In this document: in pieces, positions 30,416 through 50,268 of the stretch | How positions within the stretch are numbered: the first letter of the stretch is position 1 | How the letters are laid out: every line of letters begins with the position of its first letter | Source of the DNA: a virus | Strand: one strand, 5' to 3' | Virus record (IMG/VR): IMGVR_UViG_3300045988_091011 | Span: 50,138 to 114,137 of that record | Length of the DNA stretch: 64,000 nucleotides | Program-made: the position numbers and the translations under genes | The notes under the pieces: generated by a model | Seen by the model: only the letters and a program-made list of their open reading frames with translations | Told to the model about the DNA's origin: nothing | Databases searched by the model: none

Positions 30416-31435
30416 TCATCGCTTTATCTTTTTAGACGGATCCCAATCCGAAGAGAAAGGGCATTCGTTTTTGTTATGTAATCCAAAGTCACAATAATAA
30501 CACAGTGCCGACGGGCAGGGTAGCTTGTTTTGCGGAACAGGCTGGCTTAGAGTGGCACGCCGCTTGCTATACCTGGCTCCTTCTACTCCCTGGATGTATG
30601 CCTGAAATGTTTTTACACTATTATCTTCAAAATCATACATTTTGGATAAAGTGTTATTTAGCATCTCTATAGATTTTGTTTTACGATCTTCATCTACTTT
30701 AACCTTTTGGTACTGCCTGGTCCTGGTAAAGAAATAGATGTTCATATCTGGTAGAACTCCACCATATTTTCTATAGATGTAAAATGAATATATAGGATGC
30801 TGTAAATTTGTCTCCAGTTTCTTAGAATCAAAAACCTTATTCCCTGATTTCCAATCTATGACATAATGGTGAACTACGTTCTTGCTCTTTATAGCCAGAT
30901 GAAGGTCTACCGATCCTACTATGTACACATGAGTATGAATTACTCCATTTATGTTAACAGGCTTAGGAAGACGGTACGGCAGCACAAAATCTTCTTCGAC
31001 TCCAACTATAGCGCCGTGTCTGATAAGTTTCTCGCAGGGATTAAGATCACTATCAGCTATCATAAACCTATTGCCGTCTTTTTTGAACAGATCCACAATC
31101 CAAGCAAGAAGCTCCCCAGATTGCTTCATGGCTATCATCATATTTTCCGGTGATTGCCAAGGTATGTCTTCTTGGTAAGCATAGTAACTTATAGCTTCCC
31201 CCAGGTCTTTGCCAGAAGGCTGTCTTCCGTTCTTAAAGAAGTATTCCAGTGTCTTATGGATAACCGTACCATAAGACGTAGCTTCTTGTTTTTCCGTAGA
31301 CCTTTTGCCCTCCACGTAAGTCTTATACCATTTCATTGGACAAGTAAGAAACGTATCTATCTGGGAATAAGATATGGCAAGACGTTTCACGCCATTAAAC
31401 TCCTTATATAGCAAATGCGTTTCCGGGACCATCAT
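30416..31435 (-). CDS. Cas4/RecB-like PD-(D/E)XK exonuclease with a C-terminal Cys cluster.
   Basis: YSQIDTFLTCP N-terminal motif, VGSVDLHL, VIDWKSG (the D/E-x-K motif), and a four-Cys cluster CPSALCYYC...NECPF. Confidence 0.7.
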   Translation of the reverse strand: MMVPETHLLYKEFNGVKRLAISYSQIDTFLTCPMKWYKTYVEGKRSTEKQEATSYGTVIHKTLEYFFKNGRQPSGKDLGEAISYYAYQEDIPWQSPENMMIAMKQSGELLAWIVDLFKKDGNRFMIADSDLNPCEKLIRHGAIVGVEEDFVLPYRLPKPVNINGVIHTHVYIVGSVDLHLAIKSKNVVHHYVIDWKSGNKVFDSKKLETNLQHPIYSFYIYRKYGGVLPDMNIYFFTRTRQYQKVKVDEDRKTKSIEMLNNTLSKMYDFEDNSVKTFQAYIQGVEGARYSKRRATLSQPVPQNKLPCPSALCYYCDFGLHNKNECPFSSDWDPSKKIKR

Positions 31436-31779: not shown

Positions 31780-31902
31780 ATCCCATATTCTATTAAATAT
31801 ATTTAAAGCTATTCGTATGTTTTAATACATCCCCTCGGAGACCTTTCGGTCTCCTTGGTAGATGTAAATCCCGTTAGGGATAAGTCAGGATTTCTCCTGT
31901 AA

Positions 31903-32090
31903 GTACCCATCGCCAATGTTATTTGAGGTTTTGAATAAGCAACACTGTTCCTGAATACCAGAACTGTTTAATCACTTACCTTAGAGCTACAGACTTGGGC
32001 AAACATCCGTAGGTAACTATCTATTCTTAAATAACGTAGCCTTTGTTTCAAGGCTTAGGCTAATAACCCGATCTCTTAAAGAGATGTATT
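31903..32090 (-). ncRNA. Partner-less second copy of the IscB-associated omegaRNA-like scaffold (about 164-nt conserved core plus a divergent terminal hairpin).
   Basis: About 93% identical to 43678-43843. The stem AGCCTT/AAGGCT here is replaced by AGTGTT/AACACT in the other copy, a compensatory change. Lies in a 520-bp non-coding gap. Strand inferred from iscB orientation. Confidence 0.35.
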
Positions 32091-32302
32091 AAACTTTTAT
32101 AATAGAATTATATTGGTTTAATACTATTTGGGGTTATAACACTGATCATAATGATTGGTCAGTTCTTCTGGTTCTAAATCTTGTCCAAAATCCATGTTAA
32201 AAATATCGTAATTAGTAAAGCACTGTTCCTGCCGGCAGGAAATCTATGAATGCTGCTTTTGCTTCTTCAATTAGGCCCAAGTGTAACCTTGGGCCATTGT
32301 AT

Positions 32303-34003
32303 TTATTTTTTGTCATCTCCTTTTAGCTTCTTTAAAGTATCTGCAATCGGAAGCTGATCAATGACTCCCAATGCCGGAGCGACGGTCTTAACAACATTGT
32401 TAAGGAAATTACCGGTACTGTTCTGACCGCCGTCAAATACCGTGATATTTCCGAGGTTAATGTGCTCAAATGCCTTAACCTGTTCTCCAGCAATTTCTTT
32501 CCACTGATTAACCATCTTGTACTGGATGGCTATCTGAGGATTGGATTCTGCCGCTTCCACCATAGCCTTAAATCCGTCGGCTTCTGCCATTAACGACTTT
32601 TTCTTACCTTCGGCTTCTGCCTCCAGCTTCATCTGAATAGCTTTTGCCTCTGCCTCAGCTTTTGCCAAATGTGCTGCTGCCTCTGCCTCAGCCCGGCGTT
32701 TGATCTTCTCTGCCTCAGCATCAGCTTGCAAGATAGCCTCTTCCTTCTGGGTTTCAGCCGGCACAATCTTTTCAGCCTTAAGCGCAGCCTGAACTTTCTT
32801 AGCCTTAGCTTCTTCCACTTCTTTATCAGCAAGTTCTTTTGCCGTTTTTACAGCCGCTTCCGATTTAACTTTTTCTTCTCCGGCCTTCTTCTCTGATTGA
32901 GCTTTGATGATCTGTAATTCTGATACCGATACAGCAACCTCCTTCTGGGCATTGTTGTATCCTATAGACGCATTTTTCTCAGCCTCAGCCTTCTTAATCT
33001 GAGCTTCAGAGTCTTGTATTGCTATAGCTGCTTCCTTGTCAGCTTCAGCCTTATTTTTTCCGACTTCTTCCATCCTTTCAGCCTCGGCTTTATTTACTTC
33101 AAGTTCTGCCTTAGATCTTACAATCGCCGATTCCTTGTCGGTTAAAGTTTTTGCGATAACCGCAGCCCTGTCTCTATCTGCTTGAGCTACGCCGATCTGT
33201 TTCTCTTTATCGGTTAAAGCCAAGGCTATTTCTTTTTCTTTCTTCGTTTCAGCTACTATCGTTTCCTTTTCTTTTTCAGTACAAGCAATTTGAATCTCTT
33301 GTTCTTTTTTGGTATTAGCTACAGCCGTTTCTTTCTCCTTCTGCTGTACAGCAATCTTAATAGCACCCAGTTTCTCCTGTTCTTCGATATTAGCCTGTGC
33401 TTCGTTCAGAGCCCTACTTTCAGCCTCCTTACCAAGGTTCATAATATAACCGGCTTCGTCTCTGATGTCACTGATGTTGATGTTCAGGAGGTAAAGACCT
33501 AACTTGTTAAGTTCGTTATCAATGTTCTTTCTTGCCTTATCCAAAAACTCATCCCTGTCAGAATTAAGTTTTTCGATTGTCATTTCAGCAATAATCAAAC
33601 GCATCTGACCGTAAACGATGTCCGTAATAAGATTTTCAGTAGATTCGGTATCCATCCCCAAAAGTCTTTCTGCCGCATTTTGCATGATTTCTGGATTTGT
33701 ACTGATAGCTACTGTAATAGTCGTAGGTACATCTACTCTAATATTCTGAGATGACAAAGCACCGGTAAGCTTGCAATCTATTTGCATAGGCTCCATTGAC
33801 AAAACATCATAGCTTTGAATAATAGGCAAGACAAATGCCGCTCCACCATGATATAATTTTGCCGACTTCTTTTCCCCACCTGTCTTACCGTAAACGACCA
33901 AGACCTGATTAGGCTTACATCTACGATACCTTGATAAGACTCCGATGATTGTCAAAATAATCACTACAGCTAAGATAGCTGACACGTACATGATTGTTGT
34001 CAC
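32303..34003 (-). CDS. Flotillin-like SPFH/band-7 protein (N-terminal TM, SPFH domain, long Ala/Glu/Lys-rich coiled coil).
   Basis: TM MYVSAILAVVIILTIIGVL. SPFH signature VVYGKTGG..., IDCKLTG, IRVDV, AAERLLGMD, GLYLLNINISDIRDEAGYI..LGKEAESRA. About 300 aa of EAEAK-type coiled coil. Confidence 0.85.
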   Translation of the reverse strand: MTTIMYVSAILAVVIILTIIGVLSRYRRCKPNQVLVVYGKTGGEKKSAKLYHGGAAFVLPIIQSYDVLSMEPMQIDCKLTGALSSQNIRVDVPTTITVAISTNPEIMQNAAERLLGMDTESTENLITDIVYGQMRLIIAEMTIEKLNSDRDEFLDKARKNIDNELNKLGLYLLNINISDIRDEAGYIMNLGKEAESRALNEAQANIEEQEKLGAIKIAVQQKEKETAVANTKKEQEIQIACTEKEKETIVAETKKEKEIALALTDKEKQIGVAQADRDRAAVIAKTLTDKESAIVRSKAELEVNKAEAERMEEVGKNKAEADKEAAIAIQDSEAQIKKAEAEKNASIGYNNAQKEVAVSVSELQIIKAQSEKKAGEEKVKSEAAVKTAKELADKEVEEAKAKKVQAALKAEKIVPAETQKEEAILQADAEAEKIKRRAEAEAAAHLAKAEAEAKAIQMKLEAEAEGKKKSLMAEADGFKAMVEAAESNPQIAIQYKMVNQWKEIAGEQVKAFEHINLGNITVFDGGQNSTGNFLNNVVKTVAPALGVIDQLPIADTLKKLKGDDKK

Positions 34004-34035
34004 AACTTTTAAAATTTAATTGTTGATAAAAAAAA

Positions 34036-34530
34036 TTAGATACTTAATTCTCCTTCTTCATATTTTATATTCGCCTTGTCGCCGTTTTTGTAGGTTTTTC
34101 CAGACAAGCATCTTACTCTCATTTGCTCTTGTCTTCCATTTTTCGAAATATTTACCATATAATGATTCTTCCCTGATCTAAACACTATCTCCACTTCTCT
34201 GCCATTTAAATCTTCCGGACATTCGTACACCATTTCTTGCTTTAACTTAAGAAGTAACTTATATACGTAAAACAAAACGATAAAGAAAAACGACCCTATC
34301 ACAACCCCTACTAAATGGGAACCCGAAAAGTAGGTAGTCCAGCTATATCCAAGAATAAAATGTGTTATGCCCTTGAATGATATGATGTCCGACAAAGACA
34401 TGCTTAAATCAGAAGCACTGTCAATGTCAATATCCGTATCCAGATCAGATCCTAATATCGACAACAAAAACTGTATAACAAAAGCAAATGACGCTATTAA
34501 AGCCATGCATAAAATTATATCACTTCCCAT
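34036..34530 (-). CDS. NfeD-like membrane protein (N-terminal TM helices plus a C-terminal beta-barrel), the usual flotillin operon partner.
   Basis: Three hydrophobic helices, then GREVEIVFRSGKNHYMVNISKNGRQEQMRVRCLSG. Located immediately 5' of the flotillin gene. Confidence 0.55.
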   Translation of the reverse strand: MGSDIILCMALIASFAFVIQFLLSILGSDLDTDIDIDSASDLSMSLSDIISFKGITHFILGYSWTTYFSGSHLVGVVIGSFFFIVLFYVYKLLLKLKQEMVYECPEDLNGREVEIVFRSGKNHYMVNISKNGRQEQMRVRCLSGKTYKNGDKANIKYEEGELSI

Positions 34531-34771
34531 ACCCTTCTGTTATTATTTTGTAAACAAGATCAGTCATATCTTTGATGGTCTCCATATCATAATCAATAAT
34601 AACAATATTGAATTTTTGTTCCACCATCACATCAAGCTCAATTCGATCAACAGAATCTAATCCAAGTTCTTTAAACGTCACATCTTCTTTATGAACTATA
34701 TCTATTTCCGAATTAAGAAACTGAGTAATAATTATATCCTCTATTATCTTTCTGATTCTTACTTTTTCCAT
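34520..34771 (-). CDS. Acyl-carrier-protein-like protein (83 aa).
   Basis: FKELGLDSVDRIELDVMVEQKF matches the ACP DLGxDSLDxVELVM motif around the phosphopantetheine-attachment serine. Length is ACP-like. Confidence 0.7.
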   Translation of the reverse strand: MEKVRIRKIIEDIIITQFLNSEIDIVHKEDVTFKELGLDSVDRIELDVMVEQKFNIVIIDYDMETIKDMTDLVYKIITEGYGK

Positions 34772-35472
34772 TGCTTTCTAATTTTGTTAAATAAATACGT
34801 TTTTATGTTTTTCAATCGCTCTTTGTCTGTTTCAGAACTTCCGGTAAACAAATAATCCGGATTGCCTTTAGCCGGCGGCGTAGGCAATTTAGATACGGCA
34901 AACAACCAATCCATTTCCTTATTCTTCTTAGACTCCAAATAAGGCTCGGTAGCGATCTTAAATTTTTCAGCTATTAAGTTAAAGAGCTTTGAATTTTTAA
35001 GGTTCATATGGACTGAAAAAGCCTGAGAAGGCGGTTTCCATATGAAGTTACATAAGCTCATTGTATAATCTCCTGACTCTGCTATATAAGATTCCGTTAC
35101 CTGAAGTATGACCTCTTTCTTGAATGAGGTGTTACCCATAAACCAACACAATCTGGATTCCGCTTCTTTTCTGCTGACACCTATGTCTTTTGAATATGAT
35201 TCGTACATTCCTATCATAATCTTCAACGTTTCCAGAACCTCGTCCGTCATTTCCGGTGTCTCTATATAATTCACAAAAGACGTTCCTTTGTTGGTTAATC
35301 TCATCACGCCTGATTTTAATTTCTCAACCAGGCCAAGCTCTATATACCTCCCAGCATCTTCTTCCGGCATGGCTTCGATCATAACCGTATCCTTCTGTCT
35401 TATGGCAAGAAGATTAGCAAGATCATTAGGAGTCATGTCTGATGCTGCAAGTTGTCTGAAATTGATGTACAT
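34759..35472 (-). CDS. Hypothetical protein, 237 aa.
   Basis: Co-oriented ORF immediately upstream of the ACP-like gene. Confidence 0.6.
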   Translation of the reverse strand: MYINFRQLAASDMTPNDLANLLAIRQKDTVMIEAMPEEDAGRYIELGLVEKLKSGVMRLTNKGTSFVNYIETPEMTDEVLETLKIMIGMYESYSKDIGVSRKEAESRLCWFMGNTSFKKEVILQVTESYIAESGDYTMSLCNFIWKPPSQAFSVHMNLKNSKLFNLIAEKFKIATEPYLESKKNKEMDWLFAVSKLPTPPAKGNPDYLFTGSSETDKERLKNIKTYLFNKIRKQWKK

Positions 35473-35474
35473 AC

Positions 35475-35672
35475 CTAATCAGCTTTAATAAAAATAACAT
35501 TCTTGTTATCTTGTCTATCAGCATGTCCACATGGACCAACAATTATGTCTGTACATGAACAAGAATCGTAATCTTCGAATATACACCTATCGCATATATC
35601 ACCTTCCACACATTTTAATCTTACAAGTCCGGCATCAAATACTTCTCCTACTTTAAATTCCTTCTTTTCCAT
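35475..35672 (-). CDS. Small Cys-rich metal-binding-like protein, 65 aa.
   Basis: CVEGDICDRC...CSCTD...GPCGH. Confidence 0.45.
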   Translation of the reverse strand: MEKKEFKVGEVFDAGLVRLKCVEGDICDRCIFEDYDSCSCTDIIVGPCGHADRQDNKNVIFIKAD

Positions 35673-35687: not shown

Positions 35688-36290
35688 TTAACTGTTGTAC
35701 CCTTCTTTAATAATCGAATTTCTACCGGTAGATACCGACTGGCGAAGATCGTCATGTACAGAATCTACCGTAGAATACTTGTTTCTGGTTGTAAAAATTA
35801 CTTCCAGCATCTCCTTGTAATCACCTAAAGCTACTTCGTATCTCGGATCTACTTTGGCTTTTCTTTCAGCCTCGGCATTACTTTTAGCCAGTTCCCGATC
35901 AAGAAGATCTTCTTTTATTCGGTCAGCAATCATATCAAGTTCTTTTTTAATAACTTCTCCTGCTGCCCGAAGTTGACCTTCTACGTCACCAAGCTGGTCT
36001 TGGACGGTTCCTATTTCTTTCTTTAGACGATCGTATTCGTTAATCATACCCATATCACCTGCATAACCAGAAAAGTCCTTGATTATTCTGGTTCCTTCTT
36101 TAAGGAGCTCAATAACTCGTCTTTTACGTTCTCTGCTTATTAAAGACGGAAGACGATAATTCATATCCGCCACCGCCTTATCATGTATGGAGTTGATTAA
36201 AAACATCTCTCTTTCATCCCCTGCAAACTCAGTAAGAACCAAAAGGAACTTACTTATCAGGTATTCGTTTTCTTCTACTGTTAGTCTCAT
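35688..36290 (-). CDS. Coiled-coil protein, 200 aa.
   Basis: Heptad-rich sequence. ORF in the array. Confidence 0.55.
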   Translation of the reverse strand: MRLTVEENEYLISKFLLVLTEFAGDEREMFLINSIHDKAVADMNYRLPSLISRERKRRVIELLKEGTRIIKDFSGYAGDMGMINEYDRLKKEIGTVQDQLGDVEGQLRAAGEVIKKELDMIADRIKEDLLDRELAKSNAEAERKAKVDPRYEVALGDYKEMLEVIFTTRNKYSTVDSVHDDLRQSVSTGRNSIIKEGYNS

Positions 36291-36305: not shown

Positions 36306-37439
36306 TTAATACAATGACTGTTCTTCCTTTGTCTCTTGTTCTTGTTCCTGATTGTCTGTAACGTCTTCCACAGTATAGAGCTTGGGCGGAGTCGGCGGCT
36401 GGTTGGGGTTCACGAACTTCGTCCCGCCCTCCCCGTACATCCATCCATGCCCTGGCAGGATCTCCGGGTGGATTGTATTAGTAAGCTCTTCCATACTAAC
36501 TTGCCTTACCTTCAGTATATGATGAAACACCAGTCCGGCTGTCCTGAATGATGTTTTGTTTTCAGTTTTAAACCTATCAAGAGTCTGATACCAATCTTTC
36601 CCAAATATCATATACTTATCCAGCCCGTACCTACGAGGATTGTGCAAACCTATCATTAACGTACATAACTGACCCAGCGTATCAGACTGGTAAAAATCAG
36701 AAAGACGCGGAGGCTGCTCTTGTGGGCTTTTTATCCTTCCTTCTATCTCTCTGTTGAATTGGGATATGATGAGGAAAAATATGTTTTTATATACTAATTT
36801 AGCTTCGTTCATAACCGCCACCAAATCATCTATAGCCGACTTAGGATCTAACCCCATTCTTTTTATCAAAGCAATATGATCGACTTTAAATATTATAAGA
36901 CGTTTGTCTTTATGTTTGGTAGCTATATGATACACAGCCGCCTCAAACTCTTTTACCGTACACGGAGCATCGATGTATATTATATTATTCCTGATTTCAC
37001 CTTGAAGGATTTCAAACATCCTCATCTCTTCTACTGTATTAGAATCTTGCCTTCTTAATATTTCAGGAGCCCGCTTTTTCATATCCTGGCTCATTCTACG
37101 AAGAAGAAGATCTTGAGGATTCATTTCGAACTCGCAATTAACAAGAAAATAATCTTCTGCTTGCGGGTTGATCATCGGATTCATCACATTTTCCAATATC
37201 TTTTGGGCCACATACGATTTACCTACAGATGGCCGGGCTCCTATGGCAATAGCATGCTGAGGGAAAATACCTCCAAGCAAAGCCTCATCAATATAATCGT
37301 ATCCGGTTTTAGCGGGGATAAGCTCTCCCCGCCTGTATTTCAAGATATTCTCATACGCCTCTTCCATAACTTGTTTAGAGGTCTTGAATATCCTTCTTAT
37401 ATCTATCCTATTTGCTATCTCCTCTTGCATTTTTGTCAC
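36306..37439 (-). CDS. DnaB-like replicative helicase (RecA-like C-terminal domain).
   Basis: TGYDYIDEALLGGIFPQHAIAIGARPSVGKS (Walker A, the DnaB H1 motif) and IISQFNRE (DnaB LSQLNR-like). Confidence 0.75.
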   Translation of the reverse strand: MTKMQEEIANRIDIRRIFKTSKQVMEEAYENILKYRRGELIPAKTGYDYIDEALLGGIFPQHAIAIGARPSVGKSYVAQKILENVMNPMINPQAEDYFLVNCEFEMNPQDLLLRRMSQDMKKRAPEILRRQDSNTVEEMRMFEILQGEIRNNIIYIDAPCTVKEFEAAVYHIATKHKDKRLIIFKVDHIALIKRMGLDPKSAIDDLVAVMNEAKLVYKNIFFLIISQFNREIEGRIKSPQEQPPRLSDFYQSDTLGQLCTLMIGLHNPRRYGLDKYMIFGKDWYQTLDRFKTENKTSFRTAGLVFHHILKVRQVSMEELTNTIHPEILPGHGWMYGEGGTKFVNPNQPPTPPKLYTVEDVTDNQEQEQETKEEQSLY

Positions 37440-38550: not shown

Positions 38551-38887
38551 TTATATAACCCGGATGATCTTCACACGCCTCTTTGTATTTGATAAGAAAC
38601 TTAAGAAATGAATCATAAGACCCCCATCCATTTTCTGGCTCGTATTTCAAAAGACTTTTTCTCTTGGAGATCATAATACATATACCTTTTGTAAGTACAT
38701 TCTTCATCTCATCGGTATCTATTTCCCTACCCAATTCTTCTGGTCTCCAAATATAATCGTACAGCGTTTCTTTATTTTCTGATACAAATATTCTTTGTGC
38801 CATCTTGTTCATGTTGTGGGTGATGTTTGCAACCCATTCACGATCCTCTTCTTTCTTCTTACTTTTAATATAAACGTCCAGGCTCAT
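38534..38887 (-). CDS. Hypothetical protein, 117 aa.
   Basis: Co-oriented ORF. Confidence 0.5.
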   Translation of the reverse strand: MSLDVYIKSKKKEEDREWVANITHNMNKMAQRIFVSENKETLYDYIWRPEELGREIDTDEMKNVLTKGICIMISKRKSLLKYEPENGWGSYDSFLKFLIKYKEACEDHPGYIIEASR

Positions 38888-39878
38888 ACTGTTTTTCTTT
38901 TACCTTGTTATTGATTATCAAATCTGCCACATCATCTCCGTCTCCTACATTTTCAACATTTTGAAGATAGTCCGATACTTTTATCCTTGACTTCATCATC
39001 ATCCCATCTATCTTTTTACTCCATGTCTCAAATGCTTGTCCTTTGTCCGGAAAAGCTACAGTCTTTCTATCTTTTAAGACATCTATCACTTCCGGCCTTA
39101 GATTCTGCAACCCACCGGTAGCTACAAATAACTCATCCGGTTTATTCACAGCGCATATAATAGCCGTCTTTTCTGATTCCACTAAATTAACCACCTTATC
39201 CGGATACTGGCTTAGAAGATGTTCTCCAAACAGGCATTGTCTAAACAAGAAGTCTCTTGCATGCAACGAGTGATAAAACATGACATGAGGTCGCTCATTG
39301 TCACCGTCTTTTTCCTTCACTCTTTTTACATCAATCTCATTCCCCTGGCTGTCGGTCTTTATATAAAAATCCATAATCTTGCCGGTTCTGCATACAAAGT
39401 CCTTATCTATCTGCCAGAATATACAACACCCTTTCCATCCCCATAAGTCCATTGTTCCAACATGATACCTTCTAAATACGTCAGATACCCTTTCTTTTCC
39501 CCATAGAGACGATAAAAATCTAAATACGGTGTTTCTATCGTCTGGAACTACAGTCCTCTCAAACTCGCTAAAAGGTATGTAATTTACAACGTCAGGATTT
39601 ACAGGAGGACGATAAGCTCTTATGCACTTATTTCCCGAAATCCAAAGATCTTTGTCACCTACATCCTTGCCGGTAGGTCGTTTATCATAACCGCAAGTTC
39701 GTTCATGATCGCATCTTCCAAACTCATTGCCAACGACCTGACCGGTCGCCACATCAATATAAGGGGTAAGGCACCGGCTTTTCCCGCAAGCCGGGCAGGT
39801 TAGCTTCAGTCGGCCCCTTCCGGGCCTGCGGTCAAGTTGAAACCGAGGTACGTTTTCGTATTTTCTAAAATCAAGCAT
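38865..39878 (-). CDS. Putative DNA primase (N-terminal zinc ribbon plus a Toprim-like region).
   Basis: CPACGKS...CDHERTC zinc ribbon. VNLVESEKTAIICAV...ATGGLQN...VAFPDKG resembles a Toprim core. Sits in the replication module next to the helicases. Confidence 0.4.
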   Translation of the reverse strand: MLDFRKYENVPRFQLDRRPGRGRLKLTCPACGKSRCLTPYIDVATGQVVGNEFGRCDHERTCGYDKRPTGKDVGDKDLWISGNKCIRAYRPPVNPDVVNYIPFSEFERTVVPDDRNTVFRFLSSLWGKERVSDVFRRYHVGTMDLWGWKGCCIFWQIDKDFVCRTGKIMDFYIKTDSQGNEIDVKRVKEKDGDNERPHVMFYHSLHARDFLFRQCLFGEHLLSQYPDKVVNLVESEKTAIICAVNKPDELFVATGGLQNLRPEVIDVLKDRKTVAFPDKGQAFETWSKKIDGMMMKSRIKVSDYLQNVENVGDGDDVADLIINNKVKEKQYEPGRLY

Positions 39879-42396: not shown

Positions 42397-43623
42397 TCAA
42401 TCCATTTCCTTTTGTACCATAAAGCGTTTACACCTTGATAATTTCAATTTCTTGTATGTAATATCTCTTTGGTTTTTACCATCAATATCTCGAATATTAA
42501 AACTACCGGTTTTACGCCTTGCGAATATAAAATAATAACTGTTTTCAAACATAACCCTATCAAACAATCGGAAACCAAAAACTTCAAAAGGAGATTGATT
42601 TGGTCTTTTTATCCCTCCTTTTGGAATCTTTTGTTTATGGATCTGACGATTATGTCTTCTTACTAATCTTACTTTATAATAATATCCTAACCTTATAGCA
42701 TCAAAGTTTTTAGAAATAACAAATGCATCGAAAACATGAGATTTTTCAATACCATGTTTAATCCTATTGTATTTTGTAACATAACCGAAAGTCATAGAAA
42801 CTCTGTTGTATTTAGACCTTAGTTCTTCATACAATCTCCATTTCATTATTCCCATTACGGCTGCGTCGCGAAGCGACGATCCCCGTTTGATCTTTAAATC
42901 TATATTACCTTTATGGTATTCTTTATGACAAGTTTCACATAAGGTAATAAGATTAGATGGGGAATCTCCACCTGTCTTTCGTGATTCAATATGATGAACA
43001 TTCAATACTGGGTCTTTTGACTTTCCCTTACAATGCTGGCATTTATGTCCATCTCTTGCTAAAACATATTCCCTAACGTTCCAAAATCCAAGTTGATCAC
43101 CCTCCTGATATTCTTTACCTGATATATTAGGATTGTTAATCTTTTGAGTATCAAATTGAGCTACTTCGATAACAATACGAGATATTGGTAATATAGAACA
43201 TACATTGTCAATAACACGAATATGGGCGTCTACTTTGTATTTCACCGAAGGTGCTACCCATCCCGGACGCTTACTTTTTATTCTATTATCAAAACGAGGT
43301 TTTCTATATCTCAATCTATTTCGTCTTGTTTTCCGTAGCTCCCTTCTGGTAGACAAAAGATCTACGATATCATTTCTAAGAATAACTTCACTGCTGTAAA
43401 GTTCTTTGCTTTTCGTCGTTGCTGATAGACCAACGTGTTTAGTTCCAGCATCAACGCCTAACACAATTTCTTGTTTGTAATCAGATGTTACGTACGTTAA
43501 TTTGATGGTAAACGGACATAGGTTTACAACGACTGCCTTTTTGTCTTTAAGCAATCGCCTAACCTTTCCATGCCTTGTTGTAGGCATCAAAGGTTTACCA
43601 TTTATGTCTTGTACGTACACCAT
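42397..43623 (-). CDS. iscB: IscB OMEGA nuclease (PLMP, split RuvC and HNH domains), 408 aa, catalytic motifs intact.
   Basis: PLMP motif GKPLMPTTRHGKVRRLL. RuvC-I VLGVDAGTKHVGLS. Arg-rich bridge helix RRELRKTRRNRLRYRKPRF. RuvC-II IVIEVAQFD. HNH CQHCKGK...NVHHIESRKTGGDSPSNLITLCETCH. RuvC-III HVFDAFVISKNF. Confidence 0.85.
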   Translation of the reverse strand: MVYVQDINGKPLMPTTRHGKVRRLLKDKKAVVVNLCPFTIKLTYVTSDYKQEIVLGVDAGTKHVGLSATTKSKELYSSEVILRNDIVDLLSTRRELRKTRRNRLRYRKPRFDNRIKSKRPGWVAPSVKYKVDAHIRVIDNVCSILPISRIVIEVAQFDTQKINNPNISGKEYQEGDQLGFWNVREYVLARDGHKCQHCKGKSKDPVLNVHHIESRKTGGDSPSNLITLCETCHKEYHKGNIDLKIKRGSSLRDAAVMGIMKWRLYEELRSKYNRVSMTFGYVTKYNRIKHGIEKSHVFDAFVISKNFDAIRLGYYYKVRLVRRHNRQIHKQKIPKGGIKRPNQSPFEVFGFRLFDRVMFENSYYFIFARRKTGSFNIRDIDGKNQRDITYKKLKLSRCKRFMVQKEMD

Positions 43624-43639
43624 ATCTACAAACGTTTTT

Positions 43640-43880
43640 AATGTTTATTCAACATAAGTCAGAGTGAAACTCTGTTAGTACCCATCGCCAATGTTATTTA
43701 AGGTTTTTTTTGTAAGCAACACTGTTCCTGAATACCAGAACTGTTTAATCACTTACCTTAGAGCTACGAACTTGGGCAAACATCCGTAGGTAACTATCTA
43801 TTCTTAAATAACGTAGTGTTTGTTTCAACACTTAGGCTAATAATCGGAATAGCTTTTGGCTATTATGCATAATACAATAC
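43640..43880 (-). ncRNA. Candidate omegaRNA (HEARO-like) scaffold of the IscB.
   Basis: Located 5' of iscB on the same strand. Its 166-nt core 43678-43843 is conserved at a second locus, with compensatory stem changes. Multiple hairpins. Confidence 0.45.
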
Positions 43881-49606: not shown

Positions 49607-50268
49607 CCTCCAGTAGTGTACAAAGATACATCTTCCTCCTCTACGTTTACACCTTTAATAGCCTGTAGAAGTTTTTTCTTTGTCTCCCGGCACATATTGT
49701 AACCATATCCTTTATACCGATATGAGCGCTCCCATGTGCTTACTGGAAAAGGAATATTTTCATCAATGACCAGCCTCTTCATATGAAGATGTTCAAAGAA
49801 TTTCTCATGGTAGAGTAGTTTGTACTCGTATGCTACTATACTTGCAGATGAGAATGGAAAATAATCATCTTCCTCTTCTTCGTATTTAGGCTCCTTGTAG
49901 TAAGCCATTTTTGCCACAGTAAAGTCGAAGCTCCTGAGAATCTCTTCAGGCTTTCCGAACTCTGACTCTATGAACTCTACCCATACCTTTTCTCCCTCTT
50001 TCTGGAATGCGCATACCTTCTCATTCCTGTACTTAAATTTCCATCCTTCTTTCTGATGTTTTTTATCATTGAACAAATCAACAGCTTCCTGAAAATCGTC
50101 TTCGCTTTCAAAGAAAATATCAATATCTTTTACTCTTTCTCCGGAAAGGATATTCTTAAAACATCCACCAGCTATGAACCCCTTGTGACCTTCCATATAT
50201 TTGTCAAGCCATCTTATTTGCCAGAAATTATCTGGAGTATCTATTATAAAATTGTTCATATCATTCAT
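49597..50268 (-). CDS. Pol-beta-superfamily nucleotidyltransferase-like protein, 223 aa.
   Basis: GGCFKNILSGERVKDIDIFF fits the hG[GS]x9-13DhD pattern. A downstream acidic FDFT follows. Confidence 0.5.
   Translation of the reverse strand: MNDMNNFIIDTPDNFWQIRWLDKYMEGHKGFIAGGCFKNILSGERVKDIDIFFESEDDFQEAVDLFNDKKHQKEGWKFKYRNEKVCAFQKEGEKVWVEFIESEFGKPEEILRSFDFTVAKMAYYKEPKYEEEEDDYFPFSSASIVAYEYKLLYHEKFFEHLHMKRLVIDENIPFPVSTWERSYRYKGYGYNMCRETKKKLLQAIKGVNVEEEDVSLYTTGGWD

Follow-up and report, generated by a model that had tools for sequence, protein, structure and literature searches.

We analysed a 64,000-nt window of viral DNA (IMG/VR record IMGVR_UViG_3300045988_091011, positions 50,138 to 114,137), in which three consecutive (-)-strand genes encode an acyl carrier protein (ACP)-like protein, a small NfeD-like membrane protein and a flotillin. 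The NfeD-like/flotillin pair is the two-gene host operon of essentially all sampled Bacteroidales, captured as a unit, and in the phage it is under strong purifying selection comparable to that on DnaB. The reading that we favour, to which we assign a probability of about 0.6, is that the gene string is composite: it joins the captured flotillin operon, a separate ACP-like gene and a core phage gene (p237), and the pair would supply a membrane scaffold, made by the phage, that benefits infection.

In a tblastn search the flotillin found a match of 99.8% identity in phage crAssE-Sib (also written csAssE-Sib; OR575929), a 151-kb epsilon crAss-like genome of human-gut origin whose genes include those for terminase, portal, capsid and muzzle. 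The window represents a strain of this phage. Its close relatives in IMG/VR are 165 viral contigs, mostly of 75-155 kb. The earlier sequence-only reading of the window had considered that the contig might be a bacterial chromosome segment. This possibility fails, because OR575929 carries terminase, portal and capsid genes and the IMG/VR relatives are viral. The open reading frames (ORFs) described in that reading were recovered in place, all on the (-) strand: the flotillin (566 aa, 32303-34003), the NfeD-like protein (164 aa, 34036-34530), the ACP-like protein (83 aa, 34520-34771) and p237 (237 aa, 34759-35472). The ends of the ACP-like gene run 13 nt into p237 and 11 nt into the NfeD-like gene. 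As proposed, the trio lies inside the phage replication module. DnaB (36306-37439; DnaB_C by Pfam) and the primase (38865-39878) lie to one side of it, and a PD-(D/E)XK (Cas4-like) nuclease (30416-31435, (-) strand; PF12705, PDDEXK_1, 7.8e-21) lies to the other. The trio is already labelled in the GenBank entry OR575929, as "acyl carrier protein", "transmembrane protein" and "flotillin family protein". The crAssE-Sib genome paper (PMC11054128) makes no mention of flotillin, ACP, NfeD or SPFH, and our literature search found no paper linking crAss-like phages with flotillin.

A Bacteroidales operon carried by a phage

The 566-aa protein has the layout of a flotillin. An N-terminal hydrophobic anchor is followed by an SPFH domain at residues 30-211 (PF01145, Band_7, E 7.6e-26; 91.7 bits, cutoff 23.6), an EA-rich coiled coil at approximately 212-449 and a C-terminal Flot domain at 450-559 (PF15975, E 2.1e-9; 38 bits, cutoff 27). 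These matches, with which PHROGs and NCBIfam agree, uphold the earlier assignment, which had been made from the SPFH domain and the EA-rich coiled coil. The score for the FloT equivalog NCBIfam NF058507 was 144.5 bits, below the cutoff of 700; judged by these profiles, the protein is a true member of the flotillin family and not a FloT equivalog. Tandem Repeats Finder detected no DNA tandem repeat beneath the coiled coil, which shows that the EA-rich region is no recent array of DNA repeats. In variants of the flotillin, in-frame deletions of 85, 99 and 118 aa, which fall between EA-rich stretches, shorten the coiled coil while both terminal domains are kept; the length-variant clusters are P0099, P0104, P0107, P0112 and P0080. 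The metagenomic clusters hold 2433 members for the flotillin and 2357 for the NfeD-like protein. Among phages with GenBank records the gene is rare, with any tblastn match in only 11 of 50,697, in agreement with the earlier remark that the nfeD-flotillin pair was not known as standard phage cargo.

The 164-aa partner had been called NfeD-like, and this label stood on grounds other than a direct family match. Pfam, NCBIfam and PHROGs gave no direct match for it, and PF01957 (NfeD) was matched by only one of 80 family members, at 6e-5. An exhaustive profile search for the family collected 414 representative clusters of approximately 160-180 aa. Its predicted architecture (one membrane helix, then a disordered acidic linker and two further helices, with an OB-type beta-barrel at the C-terminus) would match that of short NfeD proteins such as YuaF. 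When a profile of 80 family sequences was compared with the Protein Data Bank (PDB), the best non-transmembrane match was the NfeD protein YuaF (2k14), over the whole C-domain, with an E value of 0.17; a profile of four sequences returned transmembrane noise only. Gene order also supports the label, with a homologue upstream of the flotillin in nearly every Bacteroidales locus (described below) and in more distant pairs. Synteny and the predicted architecture, and sequence weakly, thus point to an NfeD-like, YuaF-type flotillin partner.

For the host scan we used one genome per species from Bacteroides, Parabacteroides, Phocaeicola, Prevotella and relatives. It yielded 80 loci with a flotillin 62-67% identical to the phage copy. 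A homologue of the 164-aa protein (30-41% identity) lies directly upstream of the flotillin in 79 of them, and the single exception is a locus cut by a contig end. The spacer between partner and flotillin is 35-172 nt in the hosts, mostly 35-45 nt, and 32 nt in the phage. Homologues of the ACP-like protein, p237, p65 and p200 (the last two are encoded on the DnaB side of p237) were not found within 5 kb of the flotillin at any of the 80 loci. Two further flotillin clusters, P0120 (62% identical) and P0110 (49%), come from bacterial contigs with housekeeping neighbours, and before each flotillin stands a gene for a 165-aa protein without a Pfam match, 41-42% identical to the phage 164-aa protein. 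In a still more distant pair, a 36%-identical partner is followed 13 nt on by a 39%-identical flotillin. The cellular origin that the sequence-only reading had proposed for the pair is supported by the same operon at 79 of the 80 Bacteroidales loci. As a separate observation, both P0110 (L082:8001-9980) and P0120 (L083:8001-9869) contain an internal duplication that covers some of the SPFH domain together with the beginning of the coiled coil, and which may be a mis-assembly or real.

In a neighbour-joining sketch of the flotillin tree, the phage sequences form a single clade at the end of a long branch, and their identity to each host genus is 65-69%. The hosts are far closer to each other: the Bacteroides thetaiotaomicron flotillin shares 87-89% identity with its Parabacteroides and Prevotella counterparts. 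It follows that the capture is old and that the phage copy diverged under lasting constraint. A second phage lineage (L084 and L085) keeps the pair, with a flotillin 82% and an NfeD-like protein 62% identical to those of the window.

Selection and a cargo hotspot

We estimated selection from simple pairwise Nei-Gojobori ratios of nonsynonymous to synonymous polymorphism (pN/pS) over approximately 80 closely related IMG/VR loci, which are the best flotillin matches and under-sample the diversity. Within the flotillin, pN/pS was 0.021 for the SPFH domain, 0.068 for the coiled coil and 0.014 for the C-terminus, and for the NfeD-like protein it was 0.063. The core genes gave similar values (DnaB 0.053, p237 0.055, nuclease 0.058). 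The most constrained gene of the region, with a pN/pS of 0.006, encodes p200, a 200-aa coiled-coil protein adjoining DnaB (35688-36290, (-) strand), which is 99-100% identical in all 79 IMG/VR loci that include it, at a synonymous diversity of 0.13. The flotillin/NfeD-like pair is thus under strong purifying selection, at the level of DnaB.

These values bear on the idea that the pair is non-functional passenger DNA, or that a bacterial or prophage-flanking segment was misread as phage. The genes are of host type, and a few variants look truncated, as such an origin would have it. Strong purifying selection contradicts it, as do the retention of the pair across two lineages with 82%-identical flotillins and its position between phage core genes on genomes of approximately 150 kb with terminase, portal and capsid, and we consider it extremely improbable.

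The pair sits in a slot of changing content. In L179 the slot between p237 and the nuclease is empty, and the p237 counterpart (p236) and the nuclease overlap by 4 nt. L177 has one ORF of 101 aa there, L175 has ORFs of 101 and 51 aa, and L173 and L174 have ORFs of 105 and 176 aa. L171, L172 and L178 carry an ACP-like gene, a Dcm methylase gene, two small ORFs and two radical-SAM genes, which may form a DNA-modification cassette. L084, L085 and the window's own group carry the ACP-like, NfeD-like and flotillin genes in the same order. The p237/nuclease junction is a cargo hotspot in epsilon crAss-like genomes, with p237 as its left border and the nuclease as its right border.

The gene p237 had been suggested as a member of the module, for example as a modifying enzyme. 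This suggestion does not survive: p237 is conserved in relatives without the trio, and its N-terminal domain has the predicted fold of a MarR-like winged helix. Its relatives, down to 35% identity, occur on other epsilon-type contigs of approximately 110-157 kb, and tblastn against GenBank phages returned only OR575929 itself. It is a core protein of winged-helix type, as far as the fold prediction goes, and probably binds DNA. We also considered a phosphopantetheinyl transferase or another acyl-transfer enzyme, and fold and distribution ruled this out. Both p237 and its neighbour p65 (65 aa, 35475-35672, (-) strand) had been described as Cys-rich, which is true of p65 and not of p237; for these two and the 164-aa protein, Pfam, PHROGs and NCBIfam gave no informative match. 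The only profile match of p65 is phrog_33085, of unknown function. Its two allele classes are 62-72% and 85-98% identical to the window's copy, and no match to it was found in L084 or L085. With a pN/pS of 1.03, from 17 ungapped sequences only, it shows no purifying selection, and this value and its absence from L084 argue against its proposed membership in the same module. It is either under diversifying or relaxed selection or not a real gene.

The ACP-like gene behaves differently from the pair. The assignment, with the GLDSVD site, is upheld by PF00550 (PP-binding; E 1e-5, 26.1 bits against a cutoff of 20.8) and by phrog_5934, "acyl carrier protein" (9.7e-9). The match to TIGR00517 (8.7e-7) was below cutoff, and all NCBIfam ACP equivalog cutoffs were missed (for example, 28.7 against 70.45). 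The motif aligns with the DSL motif of Escherichia coli AcpP, and GLDS[V/I/L/A]D with the carrier Ser was present in every ORF variant spanning it. Against GenBank phages, tblastn with the protein found only OR575929 itself. Its pN/pS of 0.355 is approximately six-fold above its neighbours, and 14 of 83 ORFs have a length other than 83 aa (truncated, extended or frameshifted), while the neighbouring genes are full-length in every locus. In L171 (7675-7938), L172 and L178, the ACP-like protein encoded ahead of the Dcm methylase passes PF00550 (33.9 bits), and its Ser is replaced by Asp (GFDDLD).

The sequence-only reading had treated the trio as one module, and a wider form of this idea makes the ACP-like, NfeD-like and flotillin proteins, perhaps with p237 and p65, a single lipid- or membrane-modifying system. 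Adjacency and overlapping ends fit such a system, and both flotillin-bearing lineages keep the three genes in order and the carrier Ser intact. Nevertheless, the host operons hold the pair only, with no ACP, and elsewhere an ACP-like gene occurs without flotillin and with Asp in place of Ser. The looser constraint and variable length of the ACP-like gene separate it from the pair, and p237 is a winged-helix protein present where the trio is absent. Nor was a phosphopantetheinyl transferase found in the OR575929 annotation outside 100-108 kb, or an ACPS-family match among 59 unannotated ORFs of 100-290 aa. We regard the single system as very unlikely and largely refuted. The ACP-like gene is instead an accessory gene in its own right, under weaker constraint, that occupies this hotspot without belonging to the host operon.

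The pair as a proposed membrane scaffold

Under the composite reading, an ancestor of the two epsilon crAss-like lineages would have captured the operon as a unit, with its spacer of approximately 30-40 nt preserved. The pair entered the hotspot between the core genes p237 and the PD-(D/E)XK nuclease and has been retained since under strong purifying selection. We infer that it is probably transcribed with the replication genes, because the ORFs around it overlap and no intergenic or promoter region of its own precedes it. By analogy with cellular flotillins, the phage flotillin would anchor in the inner membrane through its N-terminal hydrophobic segment, and the SPFH domain and coiled coil would oligomerise into a scaffold, as a cage or a microdomain, in which the NfeD-like protein would be the membrane partner; an oligomeric membrane cage is expected because of the homology to the subunits of the human flotillin-1/2 cage. 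The phage protein could work by itself or in mixed assemblies with the approximately 66%-identical flotillin of the host. The probable benefit would be an infected-cell membrane that is kept organised and intact, or is re-organised, during a long productive infection. Membrane maintenance or re-organisation that would aid phage production is the most economical reading.

Several points weigh against this reading. Flotillin clusters P0112 (425 aa, 348 members) and P0080 (507 aa, 172 members) end early; the early ends could be premature stops or contig-end artefacts, and if they are real, part of the population can do without the flotillin. In both flotillin-bearing lineages the ACP-like gene adjoins the pair and overlaps the start of the NfeD-like gene, and it may be functionally linked to the pair. 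What cellular flotillin and short NfeD proteins do physiologically is itself unsettled, and "membrane scaffold" is therefore the name of a class of function rather than of a demonstrated benefit. To our knowledge, no epsilon crAss-like phage has been cultured.

The location in a variable slot also invites an explanation by superinfection exclusion or defence, in which the pair is a moron that shields the infected or carrier cell, its scaffold altering the inner membrane and blocking injection or infection by a rival phage. Variable phage slots typically carry conflict genes, and the slot of a sister lineage holds the methylase and two radical-SAM genes. Both proteins of the pair are membrane proteins, and the phage copy has diverged far from a host protein that is highly conserved, which would be in keeping with a new role. 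Yet PADLOC found no defence model match for any of the seven proteins, selection within the population is strongly purifying and shows nothing of an arms race, and we know of no exclusion system that uses a flotillin. On balance we think exclusion unlikely.

A different use of the cage would be control of a protease or of the choice between lysis and lysogeny, by analogy with HflK/C, whose SPFH cages are established regulators of FtsH. The phage cage might act on a membrane protease of the host or on the timing of the holin, and thereby adjust a repressor/antirepressor switch or lysis. Antirepressors are annotated in OR575929, and the genome paper reports repressor and antirepressor genes for crAssE-Sib (PMC11054128). 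The protein itself speaks against this role, as the Flot domain and the best PDB matches (flotillin-1/2) place it in the flotillin subfamily and not with HflK/C. The 164-aa partner consists of helices and barrel only and lacks the ClpP-type protease domain of long NfeD proteins. Such control appears distinctly improbable.

The composite reading can be taken further, although we hold the extension to be speculative and rather doubtful. The pair, approximately 33% diverged from the host version, may have become specialised to build phage-specific cages of tunable height. These might serve as a platform for replication or assembly at the inner membrane, or might poison or replace the host flotillin network and so exclude rivals. 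The tunable height is proposed because of the in-frame length variants of the coiled coil. If the pair is specialised in this way, it would give a virus-encoded flotillin in bacteria its first functional role.

Flotillins and their NfeD partners are widespread in bacteria, and their physiological role is poorly understood. An abundant phage lineage of the human gut, met thousands of times in metagenomes, that carries a diverged copy of the operon under strong selection is a natural handle on what the operon does in an infected cell. The p237/nuclease junction is in turn a good site at which to seek more accessory or conflict genes.

Neighbouring elements and comparison with known systems

A mobile element lies on the nuclease side of the flotillin, where the genome also has a 115-aa ORF (p115). 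A full-length solo HEARO (IscB-type omega) RNA was identified at 31899-32137 on the (-) strand (Rfam RF02033, 111 bits against a gathering threshold of 83), within an insertion of approximately 360 nt (about 31795-32155) immediately after a TTAT, at a distance of 165 nt past the flotillin stop. OR575929 lacks the insertion and the locus L017 has it, and the p115 offsets suggest that approximately 15 of the 80 IMG/VR loci have it. No IscB stands beside the solo RNA. An intact IscB of 408 aa is encoded elsewhere in the window (42397-43866 including the omega RNA, (-) strand; RRXRR 1.9e-60, HNH 4e-9), preceded by its own HEARO omega RNA (43674-43866, (-) strand, 113 bits). The scaffold of the solo RNA is near-identical to this omega RNA, with compensatory changes in one stem. 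No ORF of IscB size is annotated in the matching stretch of OR575929. The solo insertion is a strain-specific mobile element, not part of the operon, and looks like a non-autonomous IS200/605-type element.

Closer to the flotillin, the terminator scan marked a GC-rich palindromic hairpin of 8 bp at 32274-32295, 8 nt past the stop, whose sequence is kept in OR575929 and L017. From its sequence it is a possible, putative transcript-end structure, without a U-tract on the coding strand. Overall, the terminator scan gave 7 sites against 5.0 ± 2.1 in shuffled sequence, no clear excess, and the promoter scan, which does not cover Bacteroidales promoters, gave 26 against 22.2 ± 4.3, no excess. The hairpin falls within a 50-aa coding sequence of the GenBank record (WOZ57344; 32164-32316 in the window, (-) strand) that overlaps the flotillin stop. 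A 10-nt deletion in the window gives this frame two in-frame stops, and it is probably not a real gene. In other relatives, the ResIII/Helicase_C helicase downstream of the nuclease has Hom_end_hint/LAGLIDADG matches (L172:13288-14711, L173:10014-11837, L174:5389-7212), which suggests an intein or a homing-endonuclease insertion.

Genes of the SPFH superfamily have been seen in phages before. SPFH/Band 7 ORFs are reported in the T4-like phages RB43, 44RR and Aeh1 (PMC1524935) and SPFH genes in Vi01-like phages, which also list an ACP (PMC10892097); Vibrio phage KIT04 has an annotated 473-aa "flotillin family protein" with an 82-aa ORF upstream. The paper on phage Perkons concerns integration into the host floA gene, not a phage-encoded flotillin. 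The KIT04, T4-like and Vi01-like proteins are likewise phage-encoded SPFH-superfamily membrane proteins of unknown role, but their identity to the window's flotillin is only 24-31% or they fall into different SPFH subfamilies, and lipoproteins are among them (phrog_200). None of them is a near-complete copy of a host operon, and an NfeD-like partner is not shown for them. The capture described here is an ordinary type of event, in which a phage takes a host gene as an SPFH-family moron, and not a new system.

Among cellular systems, the comparison with yuaF-floT of Bacillus subtilis and yqiJ-yqiK of E. coli shows two differences: at 144 bits the phage flotillin is far under the FloT equivalog cutoff of 700, and the phage partner falls short of Pfam NfeD. 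None of the 15 Pfam families matched by the partner's 80 relatives is YqiJ-type. Human flotillin-2/-1 (9BQ2, 9L3G), a distant eukaryotic homologue, is the best solved-structure match (E 7e-23), which spans the SPFH domain and the first part of the coiled coil. The Bacteroidales flotillin operon, which encodes a membrane protein of approximately 165 aa and then a flotillin of approximately 540-550 aa, is among the closest systems. The phage copy differs from it in lying in a replication module, in forming a long separate branch and in the length of its coiled coil, which varies by in-frame deletions. The two genes, their order, the similar short spacer and the domain architecture are nevertheless the same.

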